Shown piece after piece: positions 5,484 through 41,671 of a stretch of 64,000 nucleotides of DNA. The position numbers were made by a program, and so were the translations under genes. The stretch spans positions 1,024 through 65,023 of the forward strand of contig CALHQS010000038.1 in assembly GCA_938036655.1 (NCBI GenBank), written 5' to 3'. The notes beneath the pieces are model-generated. The model did not search any database and had not been told where the DNA came from. It saw nothing but the letters and a program-made list of their open reading frames with translations. Within the stretch, counting starts at the first letter, position 1. Each line of letters opens with the position of its first letter. The stretch comes from an uncultured Candidatus Altimarinota bacterium (GTDB taxonomy: Bacteria; Patescibacteriota; Gracilibacteria; BD1-5; UBA2023).

Positions 5484-6728
5484 ATGTCTTATATTCAAAA
5501 ACAAGATCCAGAGCTATACGAGGCACTCTTGGGAGAAGAAAAACGCCAGCAAAATGAACTTGAACTGATTGCTTCTGAAAATTATGTTTCTAAGGCGGTT
5601 CTAGAGGCAAATGGTTCAATTTTTACTAACAAATATAGTGAATGATATCCTGGAAAGCGATATTATGCTGGTCAAAAATATGTCGATATTGTCGAAAATG
5701 TGGCGATTAAACGCGTGAAAAAACTCTTCGGGGCTGAACATGTTAACGTACAACCTCTTTCAGGCTCGCCAGCCAATTTAGCCGTATTTTTTGCTGTACT
5801 AGAACACGGTGATACGATTCTTGGAATGAATCTGGATCATGGAGGTCATCTATCTCATGGACATCCACTTAATTATTCTGGAAAAAAATTCAATATTGTA
5901 TCATATGGTGTCAATAGATCGACATGATTGATCGACATGTCGAATGTGGCGAAGTTGGCGAAGGAATATAAACCAAAAATGATTATTGCTGGGTTTTCAG
6001 CCTATTCTCGAAGCCTTGATTGGGAAAAATTTCGAGAAATTGCTGACGAGGTCGGTGCTATTTTAATGGCAGATATTGCTCATATTGCAGGACTTGTTGC
6101 TGGAGGGGTTCTTGAAAATCCTGTTCCATATTGCGATATTGTAACAACCACAACTCATAAAACACTTCGTGGTCCACGAGGAGCTATAATTATGTGTCGT
6201 GAAAAATACGCGAAAGATATTGATCGTGCTGTATTTCCAGGAATCCAATGAGGCCCACATGAGCATATTATTTTAGCAAAGGCTGTTGCTTTTGGTGAGG
6301 CTTTAAAACCAGAATTTTCGACATATGTTCGACAAATTATCGACAATGCTCGACAGATGGCGAAGGTATTTGTCGAAGAATGATTCGTGGTGATTTCAGG
6401 ATGAACAGATAACCATATCGTATTGCTAGATATTTTTGCATCGACAGGACTTTCTGGAAAGCAGGCTGAAGAAATTCTTGAAAATATTGGAATTTCCACC
6501 AATAAAAATATGATTCCATATGATACACGCAAGCCACTTGATCCATCAGGAATTCGTATCGGAACGGCAGCGATTACGACGCGAAAGTTTACAGAAAAAG
6601 AATGTGAAAAACTGGCAAAAATCATAGTACAAGCACTTCGTGAGCCAGAAAATTCTTCTTTGCAATCAGAACTTCGTGAGCAAGTGCATGAACTTTGTCG
6701 GCAATTCCCTATTCCTTCAACTTTTTAA
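5484..6728 (+). CDS. glyA: serine hydroxymethyltransferase, table 25
   Basis: Four same-frame pieces are joined across 5 TGAs. TGA falls at NKYSE-G-YPGKRYY, IQ-G-GPHEH and ISG-G-TDNH. The PLP region [13 protein letters not shown] is present. Confidence 0.95.
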
Positions 6729-22368: not shown

Positions 22369-24867
22369 ATGACAAGTTCTTATCAAATCAATTCTTTGCG
22401 CGATTTTTTTGAAAAAGGTGAAGAAATAACGAAAAAACCTTTGAGTGATTCGGTGATTACAGAATATGAAACACTGGTAAAATCGGCTGAAAATTTTATT
22501 AAAAACCTCGAAATAAATAGTCCAGAGCGACCTCAGGCAGAAAAAGCGCTTCAAACATTGCGTGAAAGTTTTGTAAAATTACAAGAAACAAGCAATGCTA
22601 ATAAACAAAAAATTCAGGAAGAACTTCGTACTGAGTGGGAAACATTGAGAAACTCTGTTGTTGAGATTACACCAACTCATTCATCTCAAAATGAGTGAAC
22701 ATCACAAGAAGAGGATTCTCAGGAAAAAAATTCTGAATCTCAAGAAGAATCTCAAGTAAAGCCTGCTGAATATAAACGAGAACCAATCACTGCAAAAGTA
22801 CAAGAAGAATTGAATGAATTCCAAAAGGAGGCATTCGAGGCTTTTAAAAAACAAACACTCGGTGAAAATGGAAAAATGGATGAACTTTCTTTCCGTCGCG
22901 GAATTGAATTTTTGTCGGAACTTTCTACTTTTTCAAACATTGAAGTGGAAAAAGGAAAATTTGACTGGTTGGACACAAAAGAAAAAGAAATGCTTCTCAA
23001 ACAAATGCCCGCTGTTCAGGGAATTATCGGTTCTATTTTTGTAGAACAATTTTTCCGTGCTGGATATGAATTTGGTTTCAATGCTGATAATACTGTGATT
23101 GTAAAACCAAAAAATGCTGGTCAACAAACAAAAGCTCGTGAACTAGAAACGCAGCTGAATAATCAAATTGCTCGCAATCCTCATTTTGCAAATTCGATTA
23201 AAGCCGGTCTTCTCTATAACAATCAAGATTTGCTCACATACTTGCGAATGAATGCTACTTCTGACGGAAAAGAAATTTCTGAAGATGCACAGAAACCAGA
23301 AAATTTTATAAAATTTTTGCAAGGGCGTAATACTGAGTCTGCCAAGGCTATTTTGGCGAGCCGAAATTTTTTCAAAGATTTGGATTGGGAAGGACATTTG
23401 CATGCTGCCAGTTATGTTCCAAGTTTTTCGAAAAAATTATCTGTGATAATGGATGATCCTGAAACTCAGCAGGCGATTGCTCGGAATTTTACTCAGAATC
23501 AGAGTGCTCCGAATCGTGCAACAGTGCTCTTTAATACAATGACTGCCCCAGATGATTCTCTCAATAAACCGCTGCCAACTTTGAAAGAAAATATTGATAA
23601 ACATGGATATGCTGGAGGAATGCTCACACATACAGGAATGCTTTGGGGTCGCGGATTTAAAACTTTATTTTCTTCGCCAGAAGCAGGAACTTTGACTATT
23701 GCGGCAATGATTATTTTACCATTTGTTGTTGGATTCAAAAATGCAATGGGAATTTTTGCGGGAACACCGTTGGCACTTGGGCTCATTGATAGTTTTACTA
23801 ACGATAAAAAGCCAGAGGAAGGATCACCAGAAGAAGAAAATGATCCGCCAACCACTTCTGCTGATCAAATGGGTATCAAGGATCTTGTTCCTGAGGAACG
23901 CAGAGCCCTCATTGAATCCACTTACCCAAAAGAAGAAGTTGAGCCAATGATTAAGGCTACGGCGGCTCTTCAGACTGAAAAAGTGGGATATCTTCGCGAT
24001 TATATCGGAGGAAATGCTGATGCAAAAATTTCTGATAATGCGAAGCAATCCCTTGAAACTGAAAATAATAAAGAATTAGCAAAAAAACATATTGAAACAC
24101 TTCGGAATAAGGAAATTGAGCTTGCAAAACAATCTGGTCAGTTGACTGAAGAAGGATTAAAAGTATATACACAACTACTTGACGATATGCGACTTTCGCA
24201 GCTGGAATGGTATTCTGTTAGTTCTATTGAAGAAAGAACCAAAACAATCAATGCATATATGCAGAAAAAAAGTGAACCAAATACCTCGAAAAATTCAGAT
24301 AGCTCAAATGATGCAAAAAAACAACAAAGCTCTTGATTGTCAGCATGGGAATATGGATTTTATGGTGCCATGACACTTATCGCAGTAAAGTTGATGGGCG
24401 GGGGACCACTCTTGAAAGGAGCATGGTGAGTAACGAAATGGGTTGTGGTAAAAGGAGGTTATGGTAAAGTCTTAAAACCAGCCGGTAAAGCAATTTTTGA
24501 TAAAGGAAAAACAGCTTTAGATAAGGTGACAGGGGGACGTAAACATATTATCACTTTGAAGACTGGAGAACAGGTAACACTTTCGCGTGCAGCATATCAG
24601 GACCATCAGGATCTAAAAAAAATGCTTCAAGGGGGGAAGATAGATGCTAATGATATACCAGAAATTAATAAAAAAATGGAAAATGTATTTAAAGAAGCTC
24701 TTCAAGACGCAAATTTTAAAAAGAAAGTTCTTGCAGAATACGGAACTTCTACTTTGGATGAGGCAAAATTTTTGGATGATATGAAGTATCAAACTTCAGC
24801 GAGAGGTCTAATGAAATCTCATAATATGTCAATGAGAAAGAGGATTCTTGAAATCCTACTTCACTAA
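22369..24867 (+). CDS. giant hypothetical membrane-associated protein A (832 aa, table 25)
   Basis: Track ORFs 22369-22698, 22810-24336 and 24445-24867 share one frame and are joined by 3 TGAs with no TAA or TAG between them. It has a coiled-coil N-terminus and hydrophobic segments (GTLTIAAMIILPFVVGF...GTPLALGLI; YGFYGAMTLIAVKLMGGG). A Gly/Lys-rich stretch and a C-terminal module of about 110 aa follow. I recognise no family. Confidence 0.7.
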
Positions 24868-24876
24868 TTATTATTT

Positions 24877-27051
24877 ATGTTTAAAAAACCAATAACATCT
24901 CGTGAATCTGATTCTAATAATACTTGGCAAGAATTACAAGATACTATTGGAGAAATTCGATATGAATGACTGGAAAGTACGGATTTTAGAAACTTTACTC
25001 GAGAAGAATCTATTCAAGAATTGAAGTCAATTATTTGGGAATTTTTTGAGATGACGAGTATTTTTAGACAAAACCCTGAAAAGTGAAAAAAAATTGCAGA
25101 AGATTTTTTCAACTATATTTTACAATTTCCATGATTTGATATTGATCAGATTCAATCAATTGGAATTAATCAGGCTCGAATGAAAATCGACCTGAAAGAT
25201 TCTACACAAATTGTGATTGACCTCGCGAATGCTTGGGATGAAATTGTAGTGACGCCAGAAAAACAAAAAATCCAGACTGATACTCGTGAACAAACACAAA
25301 AACTCAGAGAAACGGTAGATAAAGATTCATTTTTTGGTGGAAATATTATTTTTGAATATGGTGCAATAGGTGTTACGACCGGGCTCGCAACGAAAAAAAT
25401 TATTGATATCAGGAAAACAAATCAGGCAGCCAAAGAGTGATTATTTCAGTTGAATTCTTTGCTTGTGAAAATGGATGATGGAAAAACTATGCGCATTCAT
25501 TTGAGTGATGAACGGCCAATTATTGGAACCCACAAGGATTTTCAAGATTCAGTTGGTCGTATATTGGAGCGCGCCGAATTACAACTTGACCCTACAACTC
25601 GAAAAGTATTTTTCCCTGCAAAAAAAATGCTTCAAGCACTTGATGAAGACTTTTGAAATCTTACATATGAAAAGTACTTGAAAGAGAATGAAAATATTCA
25701 AGAAAAAATGACTCGTGAAGAATTTGAAAAATTTCGTCAGGAAAAAATCATCGAAAATCGTCAGATGATTCGTGATTTTGATGCAGGGAAAATTACATCT
25801 ACAAAAATCTTAAAATCTGTCGGTCATATTGCGATGCACGCAGCAATGCTCCCACTTTTTGCTGTACAGTATCACCGCCATCAAACAGCTGCCAATATGG
25901 TTGAGGCTGTTGGGGAAGAGGTGGCATTTGCTATCGGTGCCAAAGTAGTAGGAAAAGCTGCATCAAAGGCTCCTGGTGTATGGAAAGCTCCAGCAGTGAT
26001 TGTGGGAAGTCTTGCTGGAGGTATTGGTGCTGTGTGGGCTGGGCATACATTTTCTGAAAAAATGCTTGATGCAAAGCGTCATAAATGGCTCACATTTCAA
26101 AAATCAAATTATGAAAATAAACGCTCAAGACTTGGACATATTGTATTTGGGATGGGCGTAAATGAAGGACTTGGGTATCTCAATGATGGACTCAGATATA
26201 TTACAGAAGATTCAGAAATGGGTGGCTTGGATATAGGAATTGACAGAATGTCATTTAATAACCCGTTTACTGGAAAACATCTCTTTACCACTCCAGAGAT
26301 GTCTATTTTTCAAGATAAGGTCACCCTTGGTACTGAGCCTTGGACTTGGATGCAAACCGCAGCGAATCGCGATGTGAATCGTTGGAACGAGTATGTAGAA
26401 CGCTACAAAACACTTCTAAAAACTAATATTAATATTCTATTGGGTGAATATAATCGTGGCGAAGGAATTTTCTCGGATACGGACAAAATAAAAGAAAAGG
26501 GTAGCAAAGAAAAATTACTTGAATCAGAACTCTATGAAGTACTCAGAGGTGGCGAATCTGGTATATCTTTTGTGCGAGAAATGGCCACGCTGGTGAATGT
26601 GATTTTACAAGAAGTAAAAAACTGAACATCAGCCGGTAGTCGAGGAATTAATGATTACATTGACTTTACTGTGAATCAAATGAAAATTGATAGAGGATTA
26701 TATTTGTATCATCGAAAAATATCGCTCAATGAGGAATATGTGAGACTTATATCTTCTACTGAACGTTTCTCGAATCTGACACCAGAACTTACAGAATATA
26801 TCAAAAAAATCCCAGAACGAATTTATTTGCAGCAGGAAATTTACCAAAATAATACCGAAAAAAACATGTATGAATCTATGCTGAAAAATAAAAATACAAT
26901 AGAACGAACTGATGAAAATAGAAAAAAAATACAAGTAACTGTGGGAAATGAATTTGCGATTTGGCTTGACGAGATTGTCGCTTGGAATCAAGAAAAATAT
27001 TTTCTTGAGCAAATAGAGGCTGGCAATACGAAAGGTTTTGAATGGAAATAA
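24877..27051 (+). CDS. giant hypothetical protein B (724 aa, table 25)
   Basis: Five pieces in one frame (24877-25179 plus track ORFs 25180, 25450, 25678 and 26671) are joined by 6 TGAs. It starts 9 nt after A. It has a central hydrophobic, Gly/Ala-rich region (AFAIGAKVVGKAASKAPGVWKAPAVIVGSLAGGIGAVWAG). I recognise no family. Confidence 0.7.
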
Positions 27052-27067: not shown

Positions 27068-27958
27068 ATGACAAATATTGAAAAAAAAGTGGAATTTAAA
27101 GATATTCCACAAAGCGTAAAAAACGCACTTCCTGACTCAAATGAATACCAAAAATTTGAAGCAGCTCGTAATAAACTCCAATCGCAGACTGATATTTTGC
27201 AAAAAAATACAGAAGATCGTCTGACTGCTCTCAAAAATGAATTGCCACCAGATATCCGAGCTAAAGTCGAAAATCTTTCCGATTTGGCTGATGCTGTTGA
27301 GGACAAAAACCTGTTTGAGCAAGCGAGGGATAAATACAATGAAGTCAAAGGTGATATAGCTGCTCTTCCTGGAAAAGCTCTAGACTCAGCGGAGGCTGTT
27401 TATGATCAAATTATTGGTTCGGATGTTACGATCAAGACTGATAAAGATTCATTTGCTGGACTCAAAACCGCTTTTGATACTTTCAAAGAAAAAGGTTTTA
27501 TCGAAGGAATGAAAGAAATCGGAAGTCAGCTCAAAGATTTTTTTGATAAAATTATTTCGATTTTTAAAGGTGGATTTGGTTGGGCGACTTTTGAAAAAAT
27601 TGGAGATTTATTTTCTGGAACAATTGATACTGGGAAAAAAATTTCTGATGTTATCAAGTGGGCGAAAGATACAATTGGTTTGTCATTTTCAGAGGGCGCA
27701 CCTTGGCGAGATGCGCTGGAAGACCGAAAACTGCTCGCGCTTCCGATTGAAAAAATTCGTGCTGGCATGTCGGTAGAAAATATTTCAAAAGAATTGGGAA
27801 TCAAACTTTCGAATAGCGATGCAAAAACATTTTTGGACAAATTTTTTAAGCCAGAAAATTTTGAAAAAATTATTGCTGAATATAAAACTAAAACCAATAC
27901 TTCCACAGTTGACGAAAAAATCGTGACGCTCAAAGATTTGGTTCTCAATCTCGGATAA
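27068..27958 (+). CDS. hypothetical protein C (296 aa)
   Basis: Intact ORF 16 nt after B. It is helical and charged, and I recognise no family. Confidence 0.6.
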   Translation: MTNIEKKVEFKDIPQSVKNALPDSNEYQKFEAARNKLQSQTDILQKNTEDRLTALKNELPPDIRAKVENLSDLADAVEDKNLFEQARDKYNEVKGDIAALPGKALDSAEAVYDQIIGSDVTIKTDKDSFAGLKTAFDTFKEKGFIEGMKEIGSQLKDFFDKIISIFKGGFGWATFEKIGDLFSGTIDTGKKISDVIKWAKDTIGLSFSEGAPWRDALEDRKLLALPIEKIRAGMSVENISKELGIKLSNSDAKTFLDKFFKPENFEKIIAEYKTKTNTSTVDEKIVTLKDLVLNLG

Positions 27959-28506: not shown

Positions 28507-28523
28507 AATATATATTTCAAAAT

Positions 28524-28547
28524 AAAAAATCCCAATTGGGATTTTTT
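28524..28547. terminator. bidirectional terminator between ssb and gene D
   Basis: AAAAAATCCCAATTGGGATTTTTT. The TAA stop of D (28546-28548) abuts it. Confidence 0.75.
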
Positions 28548-31140
28548 ATTGATTTGGAGTTGCTGGCTCTCCAGCTGTCTGTGTAGATAAGTTTCCTGGT
28601 GTGAGTGTTTCTATGCCTGGGTTATCAGAATTTTTTGGTACTCAAGCAGAATTTCATTCTGATACAAACTCTTTTCCAACTACTATCGAGCCTTCATCTC
28701 ATGATTGACCTTCGTTTTGTTCTGTATCGCTTGTTGATTGTTTGATTGTTTCTAAATAGTGTTTAAAAGCAGTTGTTGTATTTGGTCCAAGCATACCATC
28801 TTGTCATTTTGCTGTATCTGAAGATTTAATACCAATGAGTTCTTGTAAATTTTTGACTGCAAGGGGTGTCGGGTTGTGGATAGCGGTTTGGATAATATTT
28901 TTTACTTCTTGATCAATATAGTCTGCATATTGACCCTGAATATTATTCCATTCCGTTACTACTTGCTTCCATTGAGTTGTCTGAATCCATCGCTTAGAAA
29001 TAGATTCTCGGTAATCAGTAGTTGCTATTTTTCCATTGATTTTTCGTGTTAAATCAAGATTGACGGTAGGAGTTTCTGAGAATTGAGTGCTTCATTCATT
29101 CGGTGCTTGACCATCTCATTCTTTTGATGTTTGAGGAATTTTTGGATTAGGTTTTTGCTCGACTGACTGAAAAACTTCCTTTTCCCAATTTGGGTCAATG
29201 GTGGAGATATCGAATTTTTCATTAATTCGTGTTATAAGAGTTGTTATGGCTGCAGCAGGAAGCGCAGATTGTTTCAATGTAGTTCGTAGTGCACCAACCG
29301 TTTCAGTAATCTTTGAATTCACCGTGTTAAGCTCTTTTTCGAGATTTGCAATATTTTCTTTGATTTCAGGTGATTTTTTTGATTGACGAAGTGCTTTTCT
29401 TTCTTCTTGAAGTGCTTTGAGGATTTCTACTTTTTCCTCACGAAGAACCTTGAGTTCATTTGATTTTTTTGCAGAGTTTTGTCTCCATTTATCCCATGTT
29501 TCTCGGATTTTACCTGGATTCTGCGCTTCCGCTTTTGGCGCTTCCGCTTTTGGCGCTTCCGCTCCTTTCGTATTAGAGTTAGCCTTCTCTAATCTTTCTT
29601 CGAGTTTTGTTTTATTTTCCGAAAGGTTTTTATTTTTAGTATCCAGTTGATCCATCTTTTTTGTAAGTTGCTCATTTTGTCGCTCAAGTTTTTTAAGATT
29701 TTGTTCTAGTTGTGCCTTTTCACTTTCAAGGTATTTTAAATTTTCATTTGCTTCTGGCTTCACTCTAGATTGTTCTAATGCCATCTGTTCTTCCTTTAAC
29801 TTACTGATTCTTTCTTGACGAATCTTTTCAACAGTAGCATTTTTCTTTGGAACTTCACTTTCTAATTGTTTAAGCTGCTGTGAAATTTCTTCATGCTTGT
29901 GATAATTAATTTTTTTATTAATATTTTCAAGATTACCACTTCCTTCACTTATACGATTAAAGTTGGAAATTCTTTCAGCTTCAAGTGCTTTTTTAGCATT
30001 ATTATTTTGTGTAATGTAATCATCAATATTGTTAATACTTTCTTTGGTATTCACAACTCGTTTTTTGGTATAGTGTTCCTGAACATTATTTTTTATCTTT
30101 CATGCAGTATTTCGAACTCGGTTAATACTATTAGAGGCGGTATTAGTTACTGCCTCTTTTACTTTTCCTGTACCCTGTGTGATTTTTTCACCAACTGCAT
30201 TTTTCAAATTATTTCCAGTTTCACTAACTTTTTTAAGATTAGACTGAACAGCTTTTCCAACGGTACTATCACCGATTACTGAACCCACTTTTCGTGTGAC
30301 AGGATTATTTACTACCGGATTTACTATTTTTTTTGCAATATTAGTAGGAGCGTTAACTGACCCTACAATAGCTTTTCCACTTCATTCTACTATTTTGCCA
30401 GCTCACTGTAGTGCTTTTCCGCCGACTCTTCCAGCCATTGATGTGCTTTCTGCACTTATTTGTGCTCACTTCTTTACCGCGAGGCCACCACCCTTTATTA
30501 GAATTTTCCCGAAGGTTTTTGCAATACCAGCGATACCAGTGATTGCCAAGATGATATCAACACTGGCTCGCCCTTGTTCATAAGGATTTCCTTCAGTCAA
30601 ATCTTTCAATGTCTGTGCGAGTTGATTTTTTACTTGTTCCCAGCTCAGATTCTTAAGCGCTTCAAATACCTGGCTTCGGAAATTTGAATTTGAAATGGCA
30701 AGCTCTACAAACTCTGGCATTGCCAAAATAGAATCCAATCCACCCATAAAAAATGCTATACCAGGATGACTTTTTGAAGGATTATCTTTATCAAAATCTA
30801 CCGCCCAATGAACCGCCCTTCGTAGCGAGTCTATAATAAGTGAGTCGGTCTGCACTCTTACTTGTTCAATAATGTCTTGCTTCTTTATGCTTACTATTAC
30901 AATAAGATCAGAGAGTGTTTGTTTGGTCTTGAGGATATTTTGTAACATTTCCTTGTATATATCCATTGCATTGTCGTTCATCTTTTTGCTTAGAATATCA
31001 CGAGAGATTTCTCGTAGATGATTGTCAACAATAGATTGAAATGCTCATATTTCTCCGTCATTATATCATTCATCTTTCATGGTTTGTGATACCATTTGAT
31101 TGATTTCTTGTTGCTTTGCACTGAGTACTGATTTTTCCAT
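28546..31140 (-). CDS. giant hypothetical protein D (864 aa, table 25) with a Gly-rich repeat region, a long coiled coil, an AEAPK repeat and a C-terminal peptidoglycan-binding-like motif
   Basis: Manual translation from ATG 31140 to TAA 28546 is open when TGA is a sense codon (12 TGAs by my count). It joins track ORFs 30466-30981, 30100-30288 and 29116-30054. A hydrophobic segment (VDIILAITGIAGIAKTFGKIL) is followed by GKxxxG-type repeats. About 250 aa of heptad-like K/E/L/N-rich sequence comes next. The C-terminal DGMLGPNTTTAFKHYLE resembles the PG_binding_1 D-G-x-x-G-x-x-T motif. Confidence 0.7.
29523..29563. repeat. 15-bp tandem repeat x2.7 (GCGCTTCCGCTTTTG) encoding (AEAPK)n inside gene D
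   Basis: Read directly from the sequence. Confidence 0.9.
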
Positions 31141-31169
31141 ATTTGACTTTATAAATAATAAACATTCTC

Positions 31170-31198
31170 ATCGTAGCACAAATTTTTTTTTCGGTCAA
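31170..31198 (-). promoter_or_regulatory. promoter TTGACC-17-TACGAT of gene D
   Basis: The reverse complement of 31170-31198 was read directly. It lies about 30 nt upstream of ATG 31140. Confidence 0.45.
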
Positions 31199-31279: not shown

Positions 31280-31304
31280 CAAAAAATCCCTCTTTCGAGG
31301 GATA
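31280..31304 (-). terminator. terminator of rpsA
   Basis: Minus-strand ATCCCTC-GAAA-GAGGGAT followed by TTTTTTGA. Confidence 0.7.
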
Positions 31305-31307
31305 AAA

Positions 31308-32441
31308 TTATACATTTTCTTCCAATGCTTCAGCTGGGATTTCAACTGGTTCTGCTGGTGGAACATAGTTTGGATCAAGGGCTTTCAAAGAAAGTCCGAT
31401 GCGTTTTGCTTGAGAATCAAAAGTGATAATGCGAGCTTGCATCATTTCTCCAGTATGAACTTTTCCTTCGATTCCTTCCATCATATCCGCTGGGATTTCA
31501 GAAAGGTGAATCAATCCAGAAATTCCTCCGTCAAGTTCCAAGAAAATTCCGAACTGAGAAAGACGAAGAACTGGTGCTTCGATAATATCTCCAACCTGAT
31601 ATTTATCAGCGAGAACCTGCCAAGGATTTGCTTTCAATCGCTTGATAGAAAGAGAGATTTTTTCTCCTTCAATACCAATAATCTGAACTGTTACCTTGTC
31701 ACCAACGCGAGCGTATTTGTGAGGGTTGTTCACGTGTCCCCAGTCAATTTCAGAAACATGTACGAGACCTTCAACTCCGTGGAATGTAACGAACAAACCA
31801 TAAGTCAAAATTCCAGAAACCGCTCCTTCTACAACATCACCAACCTTCATTGTAGAAAGTGCTTGTGAACGCTGTTCTTCGATAGCCGCTTTTTCTGAGA
31901 AGATGATTTTCTTTCCAGACTGATCAAGGTTGATCACGCGAACCTGGAATGGTTTTCCAATGAGCTTGTTGAGCTGTTCAAGAATTTTTTCTGGGTTGGC
32001 ATTTTCCACACGAGGGTAGTGGATTGGAGTCAACTGAGAAACTGGAATGAACCCCTTGATTCCGTCAAGATCGATCAAGAGACCACCTTTGTTTGCTTCG
32101 TTTGGAACCACCGTAATAATTTCTTTTGTGTCAAAATTTGAATGAAGTTTTTCAATCAATTTTGCCTGAGAAGCCTTACGAAGAGAAAGGTGAACAAGTC
32201 CAGAGTGAGGATCGTTTCCAATAATGATAGATTCAATCTTATCACCAGCCTTAATTGTTCCTGCATCTTCTGTTGAAGACTGCATGTGATTTCCAGTAAT
32301 GATACCAGTAAATTGTCCATCAAGGTCAATCAAAATCATTTTCTGATCAGCCACGATAACTGTCCCGCTTACAACTTCACCAACATTGAATGACTTAATT
32401 GGCTCAACTGATGCAAGATCTTTTGCAAAATCTGCCATAGA
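31308..32441 (-). CDS. rpsA: 30S ribosomal protein S1 (four S1 domains)
   Basis: It starts MADFAKDL (ATG 32441; the track start at 32492 is upstream read-through). It has four repeats of the S1 OB pattern (G.VV.G.V......G..V.L.G..G..H.SE). Confidence 0.9.
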   Translation of the reverse strand, partial: SMADFAKDLASVEPIKSFNVGEVVSGTVIVADQKMILIDLDGQFTGIITGNHMQSSTEDAGTIKAGDKIESIIIGNDPHSGLVHLSLRKASQAKLIEKLHSNFDTKEIITVVPNEANKGGLLIDLDGIKGFIPVSQLTPIHYPRVENANPEKILEQLNKLIGKPFQVRVINLDQSGKKIIFSEKAAIEEQRSQALSTMKVGDVVEGAVSGILTYGLFVTFHGVEGLVHVSEIDWGHVNNPHKYARVGDKVTVQIIGIEGEKISLSIKRLKANPWQVLADKYQVGDIIEAPVLRLSQFGIFLELDGGISGLIHLSEIPADMMEGIEGKVHTGEMMQARIITFDSQAKRIGLSLKALDPNYVPPAEPVEIPAEALEENV

Positions 32442-32577
32442 ATAAATTTTAAGAAATAAAATGTTACGAAAATAAAAATATAATTGTAACAAGAAATCAC
32501 CAAATTTTGGAAACTTTTTGCTAAAATCATCAAACGAATCCCCAGATGGCTGGGGAAATTGGTTTCAAAATCAAAAA

Positions 32578-32655
32578 TGGGGCGACCGATGGGGCTCGAA
32601 CCCACGACCTCCAGATTCACAGTCTGGCGTTCTAACCAACTGAACTACGGTCGCC
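32578..32655 (-). tRNA. tRNA-His (anticodon GUG) with encoded G-1 and CCA
   Basis: The reverse complement reads G-GCGACCG..GTTCAGTTGGTTAGAAC..CCAGA-CTGTGAA-TCTGG..GTGGGTTCGAGCCCCAT-CGGTCGC-C-CCA. The extra 5' G pairs with C73, which is the His identity feature. Confidence 0.9.
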
Positions 32656-32760
32656 ACAAAAGCTTTGGGATTATACGAAAAAAAATCAAATTTGCAAAAT
32701 TTTTTTCAAAAAACTTACTCAGCGCGCCATGAAGCCAAAATTGGCGTCAAATGAGAATTA

Positions 32761-33034: not shown

Positions 33035-34186
33035 ATGCAAATTTCTTCTTCTTTTGCTCTGAAAAATTCAACTCATAAACGGGTTTCTCTGCTTTTGGAT
33101 CGAGATTTCGAGACATTTCAACGCACAAAAACCCAAAGTTCTTTTTCCCGATTTTATTCTTCAATTTGGCGTTTTTTTGCGAATCTTTTTCAAAAAAAGC
33201 CGATTTTTTATTTCCTTCTTTTTTGTGGTGCATTTTTCGCAGTTTCTGTAGATGCGGCGATGGCGGCTGAAACAAAAACATTTATCGCGACAGCGTATTA
33301 TTCACCAACGCCTGATCAGGCGAAATACTACACTGGAACATATGCGGGCGATTTGTCGCTCAATGGTGGTAATTCAAAAGCCTCAGATGGCACACCAGTA
33401 TATGTTGGAATGGTTGCCGCTCCACGAAATTATGCTTTTGGAACAAAAATCAACCTTGATGGAATTGGTGTAGTGAGTGTCCATGATCGCGGTGGTGCGA
33501 TTGGCTCTGGTGACGGATACGATCGTATTGATATTTGGATGGGATATGGTGATGAGGGGCTGGCTCGCACGCTTGCGTGGGGTCGTCGCGAAATCACTGG
33601 AACGATTGTAGATAATGGAACTTCCGTTTCTTTGGATCTTGAAAATATCCTCACAAATGCTCCAAAAGCTGGTGATTTGGCTCTCAAAAAATTGCAAGCG
33701 ATTGGCTATAACACGACTGGGCGTACATTTTCTGATGTAATTCTCCAATTTCAGCTTGATTATGGTGTGATCAATTCTCGCACGGATGCTGGTGCTGGAA
33801 ATTATGGTCCAAAAACAACCGCAAAACTCAGTGAAGTGTACAACAATTTTCTCAAAAATGGGAGCGTTCAGGCTCCAAAAGTAGAATCTGTTGTAGAAAA
33901 TGTATTGCCTTCAGCGCGTGATAATTCGGAAATCAAAAATTCTCTGGAAGCAGAAAAATTGAGCGAAAATATGAGTACCAATTTTTTCGGAGTGACGGAT
34001 GAAAAAGTACAAAATCTCCAAAATTTCCTCAGACAATCAGGATATTCCACGGATAACAATTCTGGAAAAATGGATCTTTCAACCCTCCACGCGCTTCGAA
34101 AATATCAGTCTGCCAAAAATATCTGACAAACTGGCCGCGTCGACCTTCGTACGCGACTTACGATCGCAAACGATCTTTCAAAATAA
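33035..34186 (+). CDS. secreted/anchored cell-wall protein with a 3D (MltA-like barrel) domain and two peptidoglycan-binding repeats, table 25; start uncertain
   Basis: A TM/signal segment (IFYFLLFCGAFFAVSVDAAMA) is followed by the 3D-domain pattern TATAYYSPTPDQ...GTYAGD...DGTPVYVGMVAAPRNYAFGTKI...VHDRGGAI...RIDIWMG. It also has two PG_binding-like repeats (NYGPKTTAKL; LHALRKYQSAKNI-G-QTGRVD). The TGA at 34124 is read through to TAA 34184-34186. Confidence 0.75.
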
Positions 34187-35182: not shown

Positions 35183-35267
35183 AGACGAGTAAAAAATTAA
35201 ATACCGAGAAATTTTATCAAAAGATTTGATTTTGTCAAATCTTTTTTTTGTAAACTTGGCAAAATTC

Positions 35268-35296
35268 TTGCACAGCCAAAAAAATTCTGCTAAAAT
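35268..35296 (+). promoter_or_regulatory. promoter TTGCAC-17-TAAAAT of the sortase gene
   Basis: Read directly. It lies inside the track ORF N-terminus, which supports ATG 35337 as the true start. Confidence 0.45.
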
Positions 35297-35336
35297 ATTT
35301 TGGACAAATATAAAAATATTTCAAACAAAAATACAT

Positions 35337-36281
35337 ATGAATCTTTATGATCCACTTCTAGAAGCTGAAAAATCCGTTCTAGAAACTCCAAAAACACAAA
35401 CAAAAATCAAAATTTCTCGCGCGAAAATTCTTTTCACAACACGACCAAAAAGCTTTGTTCGTCAGCTTTTTTCGAGTGCAAAATTTTTTGTAACTTATAT
35501 TGCGCTTTCAACGACGATTTTTTCGGTTATGATGGGTGCGATGAATTTTAACGCGTACAGCGCGCGTGTGGCTCATTGGTTCAATCCTGATGCGTACGCT
35601 CATGCAAGCGAACAAATGCACGGAATTCTCAATACTTCTCACGCAGAAATTGCGGGTGCGAAACAAACGGAAGAAGATATTGAACAGCGTGCGATTATCG
35701 AAGAAAAAATTGCGGCACAAAATCCAGAAATGGTGTATTCTCGAAAATATGCTTCAGAAAATTTGCTTTCCAATGTGCCTTTACAATCAGCAGAAAAGGC
35801 ATCATTTTCGGTAGCACCACAGGAAAATCGCGTTGTGATTCCTCGTCTTGCGAAAAATATTCCGCTTATTGATGTGTATCATGACAAAAATACGCCATTT
35901 GAAGAAATGCACGAAATTTTCAAACAGGAACTCGTGAAAGGAATTGTGCGCTATCCAGGAACGGCTCGTCCAGGAGAAAAAGGAAATGCCTTTATTTTTG
36001 GGCATTCTTCCAATGTTCCTTGGATCAAAAGTGATTACAATGATGTTTTTGCGTTGCTCGATACGCTCGAAAACGGTGACGAAATTATTGTATATTATAA
36101 TCAGAAAAAATTTGTCTACAAAGTGACTGATCGTACAACCGTAAAACCTGGCGACACAGAAGTTTTGAACGCGCGTGATCCAAATAAAAAAGAAATTTCT
36201 CTCATGACTTGTTGGCCAATTGGAACAACACTGGAACGACTTATTATTTTTGGAGAATTGGTCGAAGAATCTGCTTCATAA
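35337..36281 (+). CDS. sortase family transpeptidase with an N-terminal TM anchor
   Basis: Catalytic His (AFIFGHSS), Cys (ISLMTCWP, TLxTC-like) and Arg (TLERLIIFG) are in canonical order. Confidence 0.8.
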   Translation: MNLYDPLLEAEKSVLETPKTQTKIKISRAKILFTTRPKSFVRQLFSSAKFFVTYIALSTTIFSVMMGAMNFNAYSARVAHWFNPDAYAHASEQMHGILNTSHAEIAGAKQTEEDIEQRAIIEEKIAAQNPEMVYSRKYASENLLSNVPLQSAEKASFSVAPQENRVVIPRLAKNIPLIDVYHDKNTPFEEMHEIFKQELVKGIVRYPGTARPGEKGNAFIFGHSSNVPWIKSDYNDVFALLDTLENGDEIIVYYNQKKFVYKVTDRTTVKPGDTEVLNARDPNKKEISLMTCWPIGTTLERLIIFGELVEESAS

Positions 36282-37239: not shown

Positions 37240-38223
37240 TTATCGTTTGTTAGCGTCTTGTGCGTTGTATGCTTTGAGATATGTCTGCGTTGATGCGTTC
37301 ATATAAGTGGAAAGATTATTCCTGAGGTGAATGTAATCGTCATAAATAATCGCGAGCAATAGATGTGCTGGATACGCTTTTTCCATATCCATAAAAGTTC
37401 GAATGGCACGAGGAAGGGTCGAATCGGCACGACGAATTTCTGTTTCAAGTGCGGTTGCATAATTATTGTATGATTTGATCCAAGCTTCAGAATCACGAGC
37501 GATATTTGTTCCACTTCCGGTTCCGATGGCTTGTTCTACGCTTTCTACATACGCACGATCAGATTCGAGAGTTGTGTCAAGATATGACAGATAATATCGA
37601 TAGTGACAATATTGCCGTGTCGCAGAATTGACGATTTCTTGCATTACAGCCGTTTGATTAGCATCAGAATTATTGCACTGCAAATTATCTTTTTCGCGCT
37701 CCAATCGTGTTTGTTCTTTATTGAGTTGTGTCGTGATTTCAGAATTGGCTCCATTGAGCGTGCTTTCAACGGTTTCACGAAGCCCCTTCAGAATGCGCAA
37801 ACGAGAAGTGACAATCGCACACGAAAACAATGAATTCATCGTACTACGGTACTGCAATCGCGCTACTTCGAGCGTTTTAAATCCAGAAAAATCTCCAATT
37901 CGACTCATATCAAGTTCGCTTGCGAGTCGATTTTTTTCTTCTGTAGAAAGATTGGAAAGATTCTGTGTACGCGAAATCTGATGATTCACGGCGCTGGCTT
38001 TGAGCTCAGGATATTGAGGAACTGGGCGAATCGCATTATTTTTTCCCCAATATCGATCTGTACTATCACAATAGGATTTTGCGCCATCAAGATACGACTG
38101 ATAGCTTTTAAAATCAGGATTTTGTTCGCTCGGAATAATTTCGGCGTGCGCTGGGTTTTGCGTGAAAAAAATTCCAAAAATCATTCCAAGCGCCATCATC
38201 GATGTTCAAATATTTTTTTTCAT
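37240..38223 (-). CDS. secreted hypothetical protein (327 aa, table 25), last gene of the T4SS-like operon
   Basis: ATG 38223 lies 4 nt after the upstream stop. It has the signal peptide MKKNI-G-TSMMALGMIFGIFFTQNPAHA/EII, is Cys-containing and helical, and matches no family I recognise. Confidence 0.65.
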
Positions 38224-38227
38224 AAAT

Positions 38228-40657
38228 TTAAGAAATGCGATAAATAATATCTTTTTCCACAAATTCTCGTTCGCGCGCATATCGAAGACGAGAAAATTCT
38301 TTGAGCGCTTCACCAATTTTTGGGTCTCATTTTTCAAGCCACGGACGCGGAACATCCAGTGAAAAGCCTTGACTTGGCTGACCATCCACCGACAAGCGGA
38401 GTGCTGCCTGGAATTTGTCCATATTCATAAAATCGTGATTGGAATAGGCTGGTGCGAATTGTTCTTCAAGCAATTTAGCATCTTCTGGCCCGATTTTGTA
38501 ACTCATCATCGAACCAACATTTCCGAAAATCGCATCTTTGAGGTTGAGGCTTGATTTGGTGAGCGCGTCAGATTTTTGTAATTGCCCCAAATATTGATGT
38601 GCAATAATCAGTCCAAGACGATATTTTCGCGCTTCAGAAAGAATCGATTCAATCGAATCCGTCACATAATTTTGGAATTCGTCAATGTACAAGAAAAAAT
38701 CTTTTCGCTCGCTTGCGGGCATTTGTTGGCGCTTCATAGCTGCCATTTGAATTTTAGAAACGAGGATAAGACCGATAAGACTCGAATTGATGTCTCCCAA
38801 AACTCCTTTGGAAAGTGTTGCCAAAAGAATTTTTTGCGTATTCATCACATCAGTAATATCAAACGCTGATTTTGTCTGACCGATGATATTTCGCATCAGC
38901 GTGTTGGTGATAAATGGACCAAATTTGGCAGCAAAAAATGGAATCATTTCTGCTTTTTCTCGATCACCCATCGCTGCGTATGTCGTTTTCCACCAAGTTT
39001 TTACGATTGGATTTTTGATCGTTTGTATGCGTTCGCGCTGGAAATTTTCATCCGTAAAAAGTTTGATCAGCTCAATAAGCGTTCCGCCTTCTGGATAATC
39101 CATGAGCGCCAAACATCCATTTCGAAAATAATCCTGGATTCGCGGACCGAAAATTTCTGGCCCAAAAATTTTAATCATAATGCTCGTCGCCTCGCCAACG
39201 GCCATTTGTTTTTCATCATCAGTATCAGCTTCCAAAAGATTGAGTCCCATCGGACGACTCTGATCGGCTGGGTCGAAAAAAATCAAATCTTCCGCGCGAG
39301 TTTTTGGGATAAAATCCAAAAGTCCTGTCGCAAAATCTCCGTGCGGATCGAGCACTGCGAGCCCGCGACCATTTCGCAAATCTTGGCGCGCCATCACCGA
39401 CAAAATCGAAGATTTTCCCGTACCAGTCTGCCCAATCACATAAAAATGACGGAAACGATCTTCGTTCGACAAATAAATTTTTCGGCGCTCACCACGGAAA
39501 ATATTATCCCCAAGGTACAGTCATTCGTGCGGAATATTTGTCGGAGCCTTCACGACACGAAAATGTTGCCATTTGATTTCTGGTTGTTTGTTATATTTGG
39601 AATGCGGAAAATGAAAAAGCGTCGCAATTTCCTCAATATTGAGCAAAAAATTTTTCTGCCACCATGCAAATTGTCGCAAAATAAAATATTGAATCAAAAC
39701 CGAAAGCGATTTGTGACGCATCGGTAGAAAGCGATTGTAGGCGGGCGACGCAAACTGCGAAAATGATGAAATAATATTGCGAAGCTCGGCGTTTGCCACC
39801 ATTTCATCATCGGCAGTTACAATAATTCGCACCATCACGAGAAAACCGGTTTTTTTCACTTTTTCTTTCATGAGACCTTCGTCGTCGATTGGATCTTTTT
39901 CGTCGATTTCAGGCTCGTCTTTTTTATTTTTTTCTTCTGGATCTTGGAAAAAAATTTCTAAAAATCCACGAATCCACACAAGTGGATTGAGCGAAAAATA
40001 TCGTCGTTTTCCAGGACTTTTCTCTTCTTTTCGAATCATTTTTTTGATGCGATTTTGCCAGCCGTCATCCTCAGGCTTGAGCAAAATCTGAATCGTTGCA
40101 GAAGTATTTTCACTGAGCCGACCAAGCGCCGACAAAATAGCGTTCATACTATCTGATTCGAGCTTTTGATACGTTCGAATTGGGAATTCGTCGCCTTTTT
40201 TGAGAATCATCGCCTCGCCCAACACGGATTTTCTGTTTTCAAAAATATTGATTTCGCTTGTTTCTTCGATGAGACAATCCGGATAAAAACCAATAATTTG
40301 CTTTTCAACGAGCAATTTGGATTTGCGCGGTACCACGATATAAAAATAAATTTCGTTCGCGTGCGCCGTATATTCGAAAGAAATATATTCCTGCCCCAGA
40401 AGCCAGCCCAAAAAATTCCCGCGATAGAGCGATTTGAGATTGGACAAAAGTTGCTCCATGAGAGAAATTTGTTCTTTAAAATCTCGAATTGTTTCCTTTT
40501 TTTCATCGCTGTCGCTGTCTTTTCGTGCCATCACTACACGCAAAAAAGCCATTTCCTTCGAACGGCGTTTTGCGATATTTTTGCGATATTGCCACCAGAA
40601 AAAAGTCAGGAGAACAATTGTCGCAACGATGATGAGAAAAATTTTCCCAAGTTGCAT
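38228..40657 (-). CDS. VirD4/TraD-type coupling-protein-like P-loop ATPase (809 aa, table 25) with an N-terminal TM anchor and a large N-domain
   Basis: Track ORFs 39521-40657 and 38327-39472 are in frame, joined by TGA and extended across a second TGA to TAA 38228. It has an N-terminal TM (IFLIIVATIVLLTFFWW), Walker A HFYVIGQTGTGKSS, LAVLDPHGDF, Walker B FFLYIDEFQNY and IIAHQYLGQL. This fits the HerA/FtsK-like T4SS ATPase fold. Confidence 0.7.
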
Positions 40658-40666
40658 ATTTGTGAA

Positions 40667-41671
40667 TTAGAATGTGATTCCTTCGAGAATGAAAAATCTA
40701 AAAATTGCGTGACTCGCGACGAGCAAAACGAGCCCAATCACGATATAAATAATAATTTTTTTCGCGCGAGAAATTTTTTCTTCGTCGCCACCAGAAATAA
40801 ACAAAAGCCAACCCGCATAAATCGCCATCAAAATACAAAAAATCGTCAAAAATGTATTGAAATATTTGATAATATTGGCAAAAAGTTCTACCGCACCTTC
40901 AAATCTGGCCTCAGAATTGCTAGTACATGGCGTTTTCGCCAAATCCCAAACATGACCGCTCATTTGCTCACATTTTGGAACGCCGCTGTACAAAAGTGAA
41001 ACGATTCGATGAGGAATTTGAATCAAAATAAATCCCACCAATGCAAAAATCAGCGTATTTTTCCCTTTTCCAAATTTTTCTTCGTCGCCTGACCCTGTGA
41101 CGATAATATAAAATGCGTAAATCATCATCGCGAGGAATATAAATCCTGTAAAATAATATACCAGCCCCACGAGTGGTTCCAAAATATTATTCCAAAATTC
41201 CCACCCCCATTCAGCATCAATAATAACCGAAGTTCCATTGCTTGGATTTTTGAGAAGCGTCGCCCAAATAGAATACGCCATTTGAAGCAAAATCGCACCC
41301 GCCGCGGTCCAGGCAATATTGTATTTCCATTTTTTTACATCATCATCACTTCCGTCTGATGTGAACAATTTTATCACGCCGATAATCAAAAAAATTACCG
41401 CAATGAGCAACATAGCATTTTTGATTCCTTGCGCAATATTAAAAAATGTCGCACTAAGCGCATCATTTGCATTTGTGCTATCTGATTTGATAAAATAGCC
41501 TTCACCAACATCTTTTGTGAATTCATTAATTTGTTTGTGTTCCGTTCCTTCCGTTTTGATATTATTGGAAAGATTATTGATGACGTCGTTGTTGTCTTGT
41601 GCATGCGCGATAGGCATCATCGTGACACAAAAACTTGCCAGCAAAATGAGAAAAGTTTTTAAAAATTTCAT
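40667..41671 (-). CDS. signal-peptide protein built from three tandem VirB2/TrbC-like pilin hairpins (334 aa)
   Basis: Signal peptide MKFLKTFLILLASFCVTMMPIAHA. It then has three repeats of TM - short acidic turn - basic patch - TM. These are ...IGVIKLFTSDGSDDDVKKWKYNIAWTAAGAILL, ...YIIVTGSGDEEKFGKGKNTLIFALVGFILI and ...GWLLFISGGDEEKISRAKKIIIYIVIGLVLL. Confidence 0.6.
   Translation of the reverse strand: MKFLKTFLILLASFCVTMMPIAHAQDNNDVINNLSNNIKTEGTEHKQINEFTKDVGEGYFIKSDSTNANDALSATFFNIAQGIKNAMLLIAVIFLIIGVIKLFTSDGSDDDVKKWKYNIAWTAAGAILLQMAYSIWATLLKNPSNGTSVIIDAEWGWEFWNNILEPLVGLVYYFTGFIFLAMMIYAFYIIVTGSGDEEKFGKGKNTLIFALVGFILIQIPHRIVSLLYSGVPKCEQMSGHVWDLAKTPCTSNSEARFEGAVELFANIIKYFNTFLTIFCILMAIYAGWLLFISGGDEEKISRAKKIIIYIVIGLVLLVASHAIFRFFILEGITF

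Follow-up and report, generated by a model that had tools for sequence, protein, structure and literature searches.

The locus described here raises the question of whether a bacterium that reads TGA as a sense codon makes a long, stalk-like protein able to reach and bind a cell wall. The gene lies on a 64,000-nt stretch of DNA (the window, to which all coordinates refer) from an uncultured Candidatus Altimarinota bacterium (GCA_938036655.1, contig CALHQS010000038.1, positions 1,024–65,023); Altimarinota is, as we understand it, what NCBI now calls Gracilibacteria. An earlier note on this DNA had described an 864-residue protein with, in order, a helical N-domain, a hydrophobic segment, glycine-rich repeats, a coiled coil, a repetitive spacer, a peptidoglycan-binding-type region and a Pro/Gly/Thr-rich tail, and the overall order of these parts proved to be correct. 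Its interpretation is partly supported, because the support comes from the family and not from the focal sequence and because the tail has to be excluded: the protein appears to be a lineage-specific variant of a familiar design, an anchored stalk of coiled coil whose end binds the wall, with an undescribed N-domain.

The explanation we favor, with a probability of about 0.45, is that the focal protein is a membrane-anchored stalk that binds murein, an envelope protein specific to Gracilibacteria. In its favor, distant relatives that share the N-domain and an equally placed hydrophobic helix end in wall-binding domains that pass the Pfam thresholds. A stalk that reaches a wall is plausible. 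The data show the frame and its code, the order of the domains, the family with the C-terminal modules of the relatives, and the variation between strains; the membrane topology, murein binding by the focal copy and the wall concerned, its own or that of a host, are what we infer.

The reading frame and its genetic code

The focal gene is on the minus strand and runs from an ATG at 31140 to a TAA at 28546–28548, giving 865 codons and a protein of 864 residues under code 25, in which TGA specifies glycine. Twelve in-frame TGA codons fall within this coding sequence (28546–31140), which has no further stop apart from its final TAA. A second gene in the window, encoding serine hydroxymethyltransferase (SHMT; 5484–6728, plus strand), has five in-frame TGA codons, four of which align to glycines of the solved SHMT 3pgy, including positions in the KY(A/S)E-G-YPG and GIQ-G-GP motifs. 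Seven alleles of the focal gene were rebuilt (the window, L001, L002 and L006–L009), and among them TGA swaps with GGA at codons 241, 325 and 400. Across the same alleles TAA, TAG and TGG are absent from the columns that hold TGA, a TGA/TAA difference at codon 829 being considered separately below. The closest database protein, P0001 (from an NCBI metagenome-assembled genome of Candidatus Altimarinota; 87% identical to the focal protein over aligned positions), is annotated with glycine at the focal TGA positions. Since most of the SHMT codons align to glycine and TGA and GGA interchange between alleles, we conclude that TGA is a glycine codon in the source organism. UGA-to-glycine recoding is established in the Gracilibacteria lineage (PMC4032931). 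No tRNA-Gly(UCA) was found in the window.

Pairwise ratios of nonsynonymous to synonymous substitution rates (dN/dS) among the seven alleles were 0.20–0.43 outside the Gly-rich part and residues 801–828, and the frame is therefore a real coding sequence under purifying selection. The close homologues P0001 and P0002 both start exactly as the focal protein does (MEKSVLS). The single 864-residue frame with twelve sense UGAs that had been proposed earlier is borne out by the codon reading, the alleles and the SHMT alignment.

Public calls of the same gene (P0003–P0013 and P0040 from ENA/Logan; loci L006–L009) consist of two to four code-11 fragments or translate TGA as tryptophan. Standard gene callers fragment the focal gene, and mistranslation under code 4 leaves 4–8% tryptophan in the affected database entries. 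For the most part it therefore escapes family searches that use protein words or patterns obtained by back-translation.

The N-domain family and its C-terminal modules

The N-terminal domain (residues 1–190; 30571–31140, minus strand; dN/dS 0.26) had been called helical, and the AlphaFold2 (AF2) model, based on an 18-sequence alignment, contains only helices, with a predicted local distance difference test (pLDDT) score of 66 that rises to 85–93 over the first 50 residues. Searches with Pfam and with a profile against PDB gave no match to this domain, and with Foldseek against PDB and BFVD nothing fell below an E-value of 0.17. A phmmer/HMMER search over 1.84 billion representative proteins, with the N-terminal 244 residues of P0001, a close allele, as the query, returned 15 proteins (E 1e-42 to 5e-4), all matching the same N-terminal stretch. 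The earlier call for a homologue search in Gracilibacteria was thus answered with 15 distant N-domain homologues. The long family members have 652–927 residues, and all members named by their source or with a locus that was read are from Gracilibacteria (‘Candidatus Gracilibacteria’). Most of the 15 are code-4 mistranslations with 4–8% tryptophan and about 2% glycine.

The conserved family core covers residues 125–215 (30496–30768, minus strand; 15 HMMER matches at E < 1e-3, alignment A3). F130, G133, D136 and P142 do not vary within it, and R155, Y187, G190 and G202 are almost invariant. The motifs are ..F..G..D.....PE.VEL...R and G.AY..G(R/K)..V....TG..G..K, and the core terminates in a hydrophobic helix, ..VF.ILLLTG.GG.LK, here called the TG helix. 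The N-core and TG helix define an undescribed Gracilibacteria family, and alignment A3 places the focal protein within it. The core matched no Pfam family and, by profile search, no PDB relative. In an index of 5.8 billion proteins, a word-based search found two full-length close relatives (84% and 81% identity), a profile of the N-domain alignment found two proteins only, and a C-terminal query returned a set of ENA fragments, in which the gene as it occurs in other strains has been cut up under code 11. At the DNA level, a hand-made pattern picked out two Gracilibacteria loci and five chance matches among GTDB species genomes, and no real family member in JGI metagenomes; a back-translated protein pattern gave chance matches only on genome contigs, probably because the conserved glycines are encoded by TGA in these genomes. 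Among the loci scanned by profile, the family core was found in Gracilibacteria loci only. The lack of a Pfam, PDB or structural neighbor, together with recovery from Gracilibacteria alone, points to the N-domain being a lineage-restricted orphan that defines a small Gracilibacteria family.

The link to a cell wall comes from the C-termini of the relatives, in which spurious tryptophans were converted back to glycine before the Pfam scan. PG_binding_1 was matched by P0025 (48.2 bits, cut-off 23; E 1.3e-12) and P0026 (46.6 bits, cut-off 23; E 4e-12), and the bacterial SH3 family SH3_3 by P0018 (31.5 bits, cut-off 27; E 2e-7), while the PG_binding_1 match of P0017 was weak (14.5 bits, cut-off 23; E 0.041). 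Of the six long clusters of the family, four have a C-terminal module of the wall-binding kind; P0016 and P0023 carry an unrelated region of ∼350 residues instead. The P0025 domain aligns to the solved peptidoglycan-binding domains 5tv7, 6tci, 4xxt, 5nm7 and 1lbu, and NCBI gives P0033, which falls in the same cluster as P0025, the name ‘peptidoglycan-binding domain-containing protein’; P0025, the 50%-cluster representative of P0033, was matched at E ∼1e-4 with a single-sequence query. The layout of the family is an orphan N-domain, the TG helix, a basic Gly/Lys segment, a coiled-coil rod, a low-complexity spacer and a C-terminal module. P0017, P0018 and P0026 all have a coiled-coil or helical region, and the linker before the module is made of Pro/Ala-rich repeats in P0017 and P0026 (AAPAQP; PAVPVAPVTP) and of a non-repetitive Pro-rich stretch in P0018. 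These relatives thus show the order of parts described earlier for the focal protein. Weak SHOCT matches (best E 0.0012; ‘GKIS.E(D/E)(Y/F)..Y’) were also seen at residues ∼45–65 of P0017, P0018, P0025 and P0026 and are absent from the focal protein.

The corresponding region of the focal protein is a C-terminal helical module (residues 701–828; 28657–29040, minus strand) that includes a PG_binding_1-like motif at about 28753–28872. At E ≤ 10, Pfam PG_binding_1 (gathering threshold 23 bits) matched neither the whole protein nor its C-terminal 173 residues, although HMMER filters may hide very weak matches. PDB sequence searches with the protein or its C-terminus gave no match, and Pfam, PHROGs and NCBIfam searches of the protein and its parts returned only coiled-coil noise (Sec10_N, ApoLp-III, SMC). 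However, a hidden Markov model built from nine PG_binding_1 sequences gave a single match in the 864 residues with hmmsearch, at residues 762–795 (5.1 bits). With hhalign, residues 758–789 align to the second half of PG_binding_1 with a score of 22.9 (P 8e-4), which was reached by 0 of 300 shuffles (mean 10.0, standard deviation 2.0, maximum 17.3); the match spans only ∼30 residues. Purifying selection acts on this stretch (dN/dS 0.25 for residues 757–800). The motif reads T758..AVKNLQELIG..(7-aa insert)..DGMLGPNT..AFKHY, with DGMLGPNTTTAFKHYLE at residues 781–797. In the AF2 model of P0001, three helices lie in the right positions for PG_binding_1 (697–730, 734–743 and 761–782), at a pLDDT of only 45–58. 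Because position, motif and relatives agree, residues 758–795 can be read as a degenerate PG_binding_1 module that fails the formal test of the family, a resemblance that is weak but not due to chance. The PG_binding_1 claim of the earlier note thus stands as a local profile match seconded by the domains of the relatives, and falls as far as Pfam and PDB matches to the focal protein itself are concerned.

PG_binding_1 and SH3b domains are usually extracytoplasmic, wall-targeting modules, the main exception being phage endolysins before their release. By this analogy, the C-terminus of the family should act outside the cell.

A candidate stalk and its variation between strains

In the favored explanation, the N-domain (∼190 residues) would stay in the cytoplasm. 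The N-terminus of the focal protein, MEKSVLSAKQQEINQ, is hydrophilic by sequence and hydropathy and offers no signal peptide, and in the N-termini read from family members no signal-peptide-like stretch is apparent. The domain is followed by the hydrophobic, Gly/Ala/Ile-rich TG helix and a GGG turn (residues 191–222, helix ∼194–216; 30475–30570, minus strand), a candidate membrane anchor. The hydrophobic segment noticed earlier, VDIILAITGIAGIAKTFGKIL, is found here and has a Kyte-Doolittle mean of 1.7 over 19 residues and 2.0 over 15 residues. Since no signal peptide is apparent and the TG helix is the sole hydrophobic stretch conserved in all family members examined (Kyte-Doolittle 1.7–2.5 over 15 residues), a model in which this helix (∼194–216) would hold the protein in the membrane as a signal-anchor is the most economical. 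Anchoring by sortase was considered as well and ruled out, the C-terminus having neither an LPXTG motif nor a hydrophobic end.

Beyond the anchor lies a basic, amphipathic segment rich in Gly, Lys, Val and Asn (residues 223–355; 30076–30474, minus strand; 13% G, 13% K, 14% V, 11% N; net charge +14), which would sit on the outer surface of the membrane. It contains seven degenerate G-K-[AIV] motifs, and many of its windows have a helical hydrophobic moment above 99% of the null. A true periodic repeat was not found, autocorrelation being weak and a tandem repeat being absent from the DNA; of the GK repeats described earlier, the basic, amphipathic Gly/Lys-rich region and its loose motifs remain and the periodicity does not. 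Between strains the segment is hypervariable, with a dN/dS of 1.00 and with 37 of its 133 alignment columns affected by indels across the seven alleles, compared with a dN/dS of 0.20–0.27 in the N-domain, the rods and the PG_binding_1-like part.

The same two elements could be placed on the inner leaflet if the protein were a coiled-coil scaffold that stays in the cytoplasm and associates with the membrane, like those of the cytoskeleton or of cell division, with a PG_binding_1-like stretch that is vestigial. Basic amphipathic helices after a hydrophobic helix suit binding to the cytoplasmic face, a signal peptide is missing, the coiled coil matches nothing but SMC-type noise and the PG_binding_1-like motif lies below every curated threshold. 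However, the intact PG_binding_1 and SH3b domains of the relatives would have no ligand in the cytoplasm, purifying selection acts on residues 757–800 (dN/dS 0.25) much as it does on the N-domain, and hypervariability combined with repeat expansion is unusual for a cytoskeletal scaffold. We consider a scaffold of this kind quite unlikely.

Returning to the anchored stalk, its shaft would be formed by two helical rods, or coiled coils (residues 356–520, 29581–30075, dN/dS 0.27; residues 546–625, 29266–29505, dN/dS 0.20; both on the minus strand), together with the low-complexity Ala/Glu/Pro/Lys spacer between them (residues 521–545; 29506–29580, minus strand). Heptad periodicity exceeds 99% of shuffles at residues 329–369, 454–531 and 574–645, and long AF2 helices run through residues ∼340–625 (P0001 model, window numbering); the first ∼28 residues of the second rod rest on the AF2 helices, as its heptad signal begins at 574. 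The long coiled coil of the earlier description is thus a real rod of ∼270 residues, but one interrupted by prolines and the spacer. The 15-bp tandem repeat reported at 29523–29563, within the spacer, was recovered by Tandem Repeats Finder (period 15, 2.7 copies, 100% identity). Its suspected variability in length was likewise seen, since relatives carry one to seven copies of a five-residue unit of two kinds, AEAPK or AEAKG. After the second rod come a weakly hydrophobic short helix, LPAAAITTLITRI (627–639), and a Pro/Gln/Thr-rich linker (∼650–700); this stretch (29041–29265, minus strand) has an AF2 pLDDT below 50, is mostly without secondary structure in the model, and the linker is probably disordered. 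It may be likened to the Pro-rich linkers found ahead of the wall-binding domains in P0017 and P0026. The tip of the stalk would then be the small helical, degenerate PG_binding_1 module, binding murein, so that the stalk could tie the membrane to the wall or hold out a tip for wall binding, the rod and the spacer determining how far it reaches.

The alleles, which range from 779 to 864 residues, also differ at the very C-terminus. At codon 829 (28654–28656) the window and L006 have TGA, whereas L001 (12410–12412), L002 (2989–2991), L007, L008 and L009 have TAA. In the five TAA alleles the protein ends ...VPE or ...VPK, and the Pro/Gly/Thr-rich extension (residues 829–864, 36 codons; 28549–28656, minus strand) is translated in the window only since codon 829 is TGA. 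The tail frame (∼35 codons) is open in all seven alleles, with the same final TAA before the terminator. On the simplest reading of the alleles, a single recent G/A change occurred in one clade; under code 25, one such change (TGA to TAA) toggles a C-terminal extension of ∼35 residues between strains. We conclude that the tail is dispensable and not a conserved part of the protein: it is present at residues 829–864, as described earlier, but is removed by TAA in five of the seven alleles.

The part C-terminal of the anchor looks exposed: a dN/dS of about 1, many indels and one to seven repeat copies are typical of exposed regions. The window also contains wall-related genes, encoding a 383-residue protein with a 3D domain and a sortase, and Gracilibacteria have been reported to have complete peptidoglycan synthesis (PMC11452946). 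Set against the favored explanation are the negative Pfam and PDB searches given above and several further observations. The TG helix is short, with 12–16 uninterrupted apolar residues, and has lysines at 208 and 212 in the focal copy. Its C-flank rather than its N-flank is strongly basic, which by the positive-inside rule counters an N-in/C-out orientation. The AF2 model of the whole protein, obtained via P0001, is poor (pLDDT 45.8) and leaves the fold of the C-terminal module unconfirmed, and gene context differs among distant family members, so that no partner genes for an envelope role emerge. The short helix and its basic C-flank are the reasons why our estimate was held at the level given at the outset.

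As a rough estimate, a fully extended rod of ∼270 residues would measure ∼40 nm at ∼0.15 nm per residue. This exceeds the thickness of a wall, and the wall of a neighboring (host) cell is therefore as conceivable a target as the cell's own. To our knowledge, no oral Gracilibacterium has been cultivated, and we know of no established mode of host contact for the class as a whole. One could imagine, speculatively and with little probability, that the family provides host-dependent Gracilibacteria with a modular stalk for docking. The N-module and anchor would stay with the symbiont, the rod and adjustable spacer would set the reach, and an interchangeable tip (PG_binding_1, SH3b or other) would recognize the chemistry of one particular host's wall; an arms race with hosts or phages could then lie behind the hypervariable Gly/Lys segment and the TGA/TAA switch of the tail. 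If true, this would be a first candidate host-wall adhesin for these uncultivated, recoded bacteria. A small lineage-restricted family with wall-binding tips in its relatives and fast-varying, exposed-looking parts is a testable candidate for wall tethering or host docking.

Gene neighborhood and likeness to known systems

A promoter-like site, TTGACC-17-(TG)CTACGAT, lies 30 nt 5′ of the ATG (31170–31198, minus strand; nine of 12 matches, with a TG extension) and is kept in all four related alleles with aligned upstream sequence. The promoter proposed earlier is thus present at 31198–31170, though the region holds no more sites of this kind than shuffled sequence does. Because a terminator-like hairpin of the upstream rpsA is found at 31286–31303, the arrangement suggests that the focal gene has its own promoter. 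On the other side, next to the TAA as previously described, a palindrome with a T-run (AAAAATCCCAATTGGGATTTTTTAT; 28521–28545) lies between the focal gene and the convergent ssb and is conserved in L001 and L002. A consensus terminator scan did not call it, probably because the stem has almost no loop; it is likely a bidirectional terminator.

Upstream of the focal gene are rpsA and, just upstream of that, tRNA-His (GTG; 32578–32654, minus strand); since the tRNA occupies these positions, the table-25 open reading frame at 31308–32657 over-extends rpsA across it. Downstream, ssb is accompanied by three conserved genes of unknown function and by secY. The locus is syntenic in six related strains with readable flanks, L002 being too short and left out. 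The three genes are consecutive on the plus strand (22369–24867, 832 aa; 24877–27051, 724 aa; 27068–27958, 296 aa), keep their synteny in L001, and have no Pfam or PHROG assignment and no obvious signal peptide. The 832- and 724-residue proteins both have internal Gly-rich hydrophobic segments. Paralogy of the focal protein with the 832-residue protein, which has a hydrophobic helix, GGG and GK at ∼660–720, was rejected (BLASTP E 8.3 against the window open reading frames, not significant).

These neighbors bear on the idea that the focal gene is a phage or mobile-element remnant resembling a tail tape-measure protein. Tape-measure proteins are long and helical, lack a signal peptide, and have Gly-rich hydrophobic segments and a wall-interacting module; the focal protein has a similar overall look, a few tape-measure proteins occur among its non-significant Foldseek matches and the 296-residue neighbor has weak PHROG tape-measure matches (E 0.03). 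However, the focal protein itself has no PHROG match, the Foldseek (BFVD) E-values are all ≥0.17, the locus is syntenic among related strains, and there are no phage genes nearby, the neighbors being rpsA, tRNA-His, ssb and secY. A phage origin therefore seems highly improbable.

Within 10 kb on the other side lie genes for a 3D-domain protein, RNase T, a sortase and EF-P and a set resembling a type IV secretion system (T4SS). The 383-residue protein mentioned above (33035–34186, plus strand) has a hydrophobic N-terminal anchor, a 3D-type (RlpA/YabE-like) domain by eye and two PG_binding_1-like stretches by eye, PG_binding_1 being the only family named by precomputed Pfam. It is likely a murein hydrolase and shows that the source organism uses canonical PG_binding_1 domains. 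The sortase (35226–36281, plus strand) is ∼4 kb from the focal gene. A second sortase (L003, 1–1010) lies ∼3 kb away from P0033, a distant homologue with a prepilin peptidase next to it.

The T4SS-like module (37240–41671, minus strand) encodes a 327-residue secreted protein (37240–38223), an 809-residue ATPase (38228–40657) and a 334-residue polytopic protein (40667–41671). The ATPase is a DUF87/TrwB-type P-loop protein with weak TraD/VirD4/CedD matches, and the 334-residue protein passes the NCBIfam cut-off for the Mbov_0395 pilin-like conjugal transfer family (51.6 versus 40 bits); neither a relaxase nor VirB4 turned up in the window. A monoderm-type T4SS has been described for Patescibacteria and has apparently been co-opted for non-conjugative roles (PMC12102498), and the set in the window fits this type. 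Together with the sortase, it points to a monoderm-like envelope in the source organism.

The proximity of this module raises the possibility that the focal protein is an effector or adhesin exported by a non-Sec route, its N-domain serving in trafficking and its C-terminus targeting the wall of a host or prey, while the cationic Gly/Lys segment and TG helix engage the membrane of the target and not that of the producer. In its favor, the N-termini read show no signal-peptide-like stretch, and a conserved N-module is joined to differing C-termini (PG_binding_1, SH3b, or the unrelated region of P0016 and P0023), as in polymorphic effector families. A signal-anchor would sit poorly with the basic flank, genes for a coupling ATPase of T4SS type and for a pilin-like protein of conjugal transfer are found 7–10 kb away, Gracilibacteria are thought to be host-dependent (PMC11452946) and the Patescibacteria T4SS is apparently co-opted (PMC12102498). 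However, LXG, PT-TG and other known trafficking or toxin domains are unmatched, a catalytic or toxin module is absent, no immunity-like or secretion gene is adjacent, context differs between relatives, and between the T4SS-like genes and the focal gene there are housekeeping genes. On balance, export as an effector is unlikely, if worth keeping in view beside the anchored stalk.

Compared to LXG-type polymorphic effectors, the focal protein is alike in having a conserved helical N-module without a signal peptide and differing C-terminal modules in its family, but it lacks a toxin domain and an immunity gene, and no type VII secretion genes were seen. The idea of an LXG/PT-TG toxin was dropped, as neither the focal protein nor any of 17 family members has such a Pfam match. 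TolA/TonB-type spanners, which belong to diderms, likewise have a membrane anchor followed by an extended Ala/Lys/Glu-rich helix or Pro-rich spacer of variable length; the focal protein, however, has neither TolA_III nor TonB_C, and the window holds no ExbBD/TolQR partners. Bitopic murein tethers combine a cytoplasmic N-domain, one transmembrane segment and a C-terminal peptidoglycan-binding domain, as in ExeA/GspA (PG_binding_1) and FtsN, DamX and DedD (SPOR). The layout proposed here is similar, with a cytoplasmic domain, a single anchor, a long linker and a wall-binding end. It differs in the absence of AAA+ or SPOR domains, in a rod of ∼270 residues, in a weak anchor with a basic C-flank and in a locus without secretin or divisome genes.

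With the PG_binding_1 (PF01471) domains of SleB, the Streptomyces Zn D-Ala-D-Ala carboxypeptidase (1lbu) and 5nm7, the focal protein shares the T..AVK.LQ...G / DG.LGP.T..A pattern and its C-terminal position. It lacks the first DGxxG half-repeat, has a seven-residue insertion, stays below the Pfam threshold and is attached to no hydrolase, whereas distant members of its family carry the genuine domain. One of these, MDD2871083.1 (P0033, from a Candidatus Gracilibacteria metagenome-assembled genome), has the same N-domain with its parts in the same sequence of positions, and likewise comes from Gracilibacteria. It differs in its genomic context and in having a full PG_binding_1 domain, and is only ∼25% identical in the N-domain.

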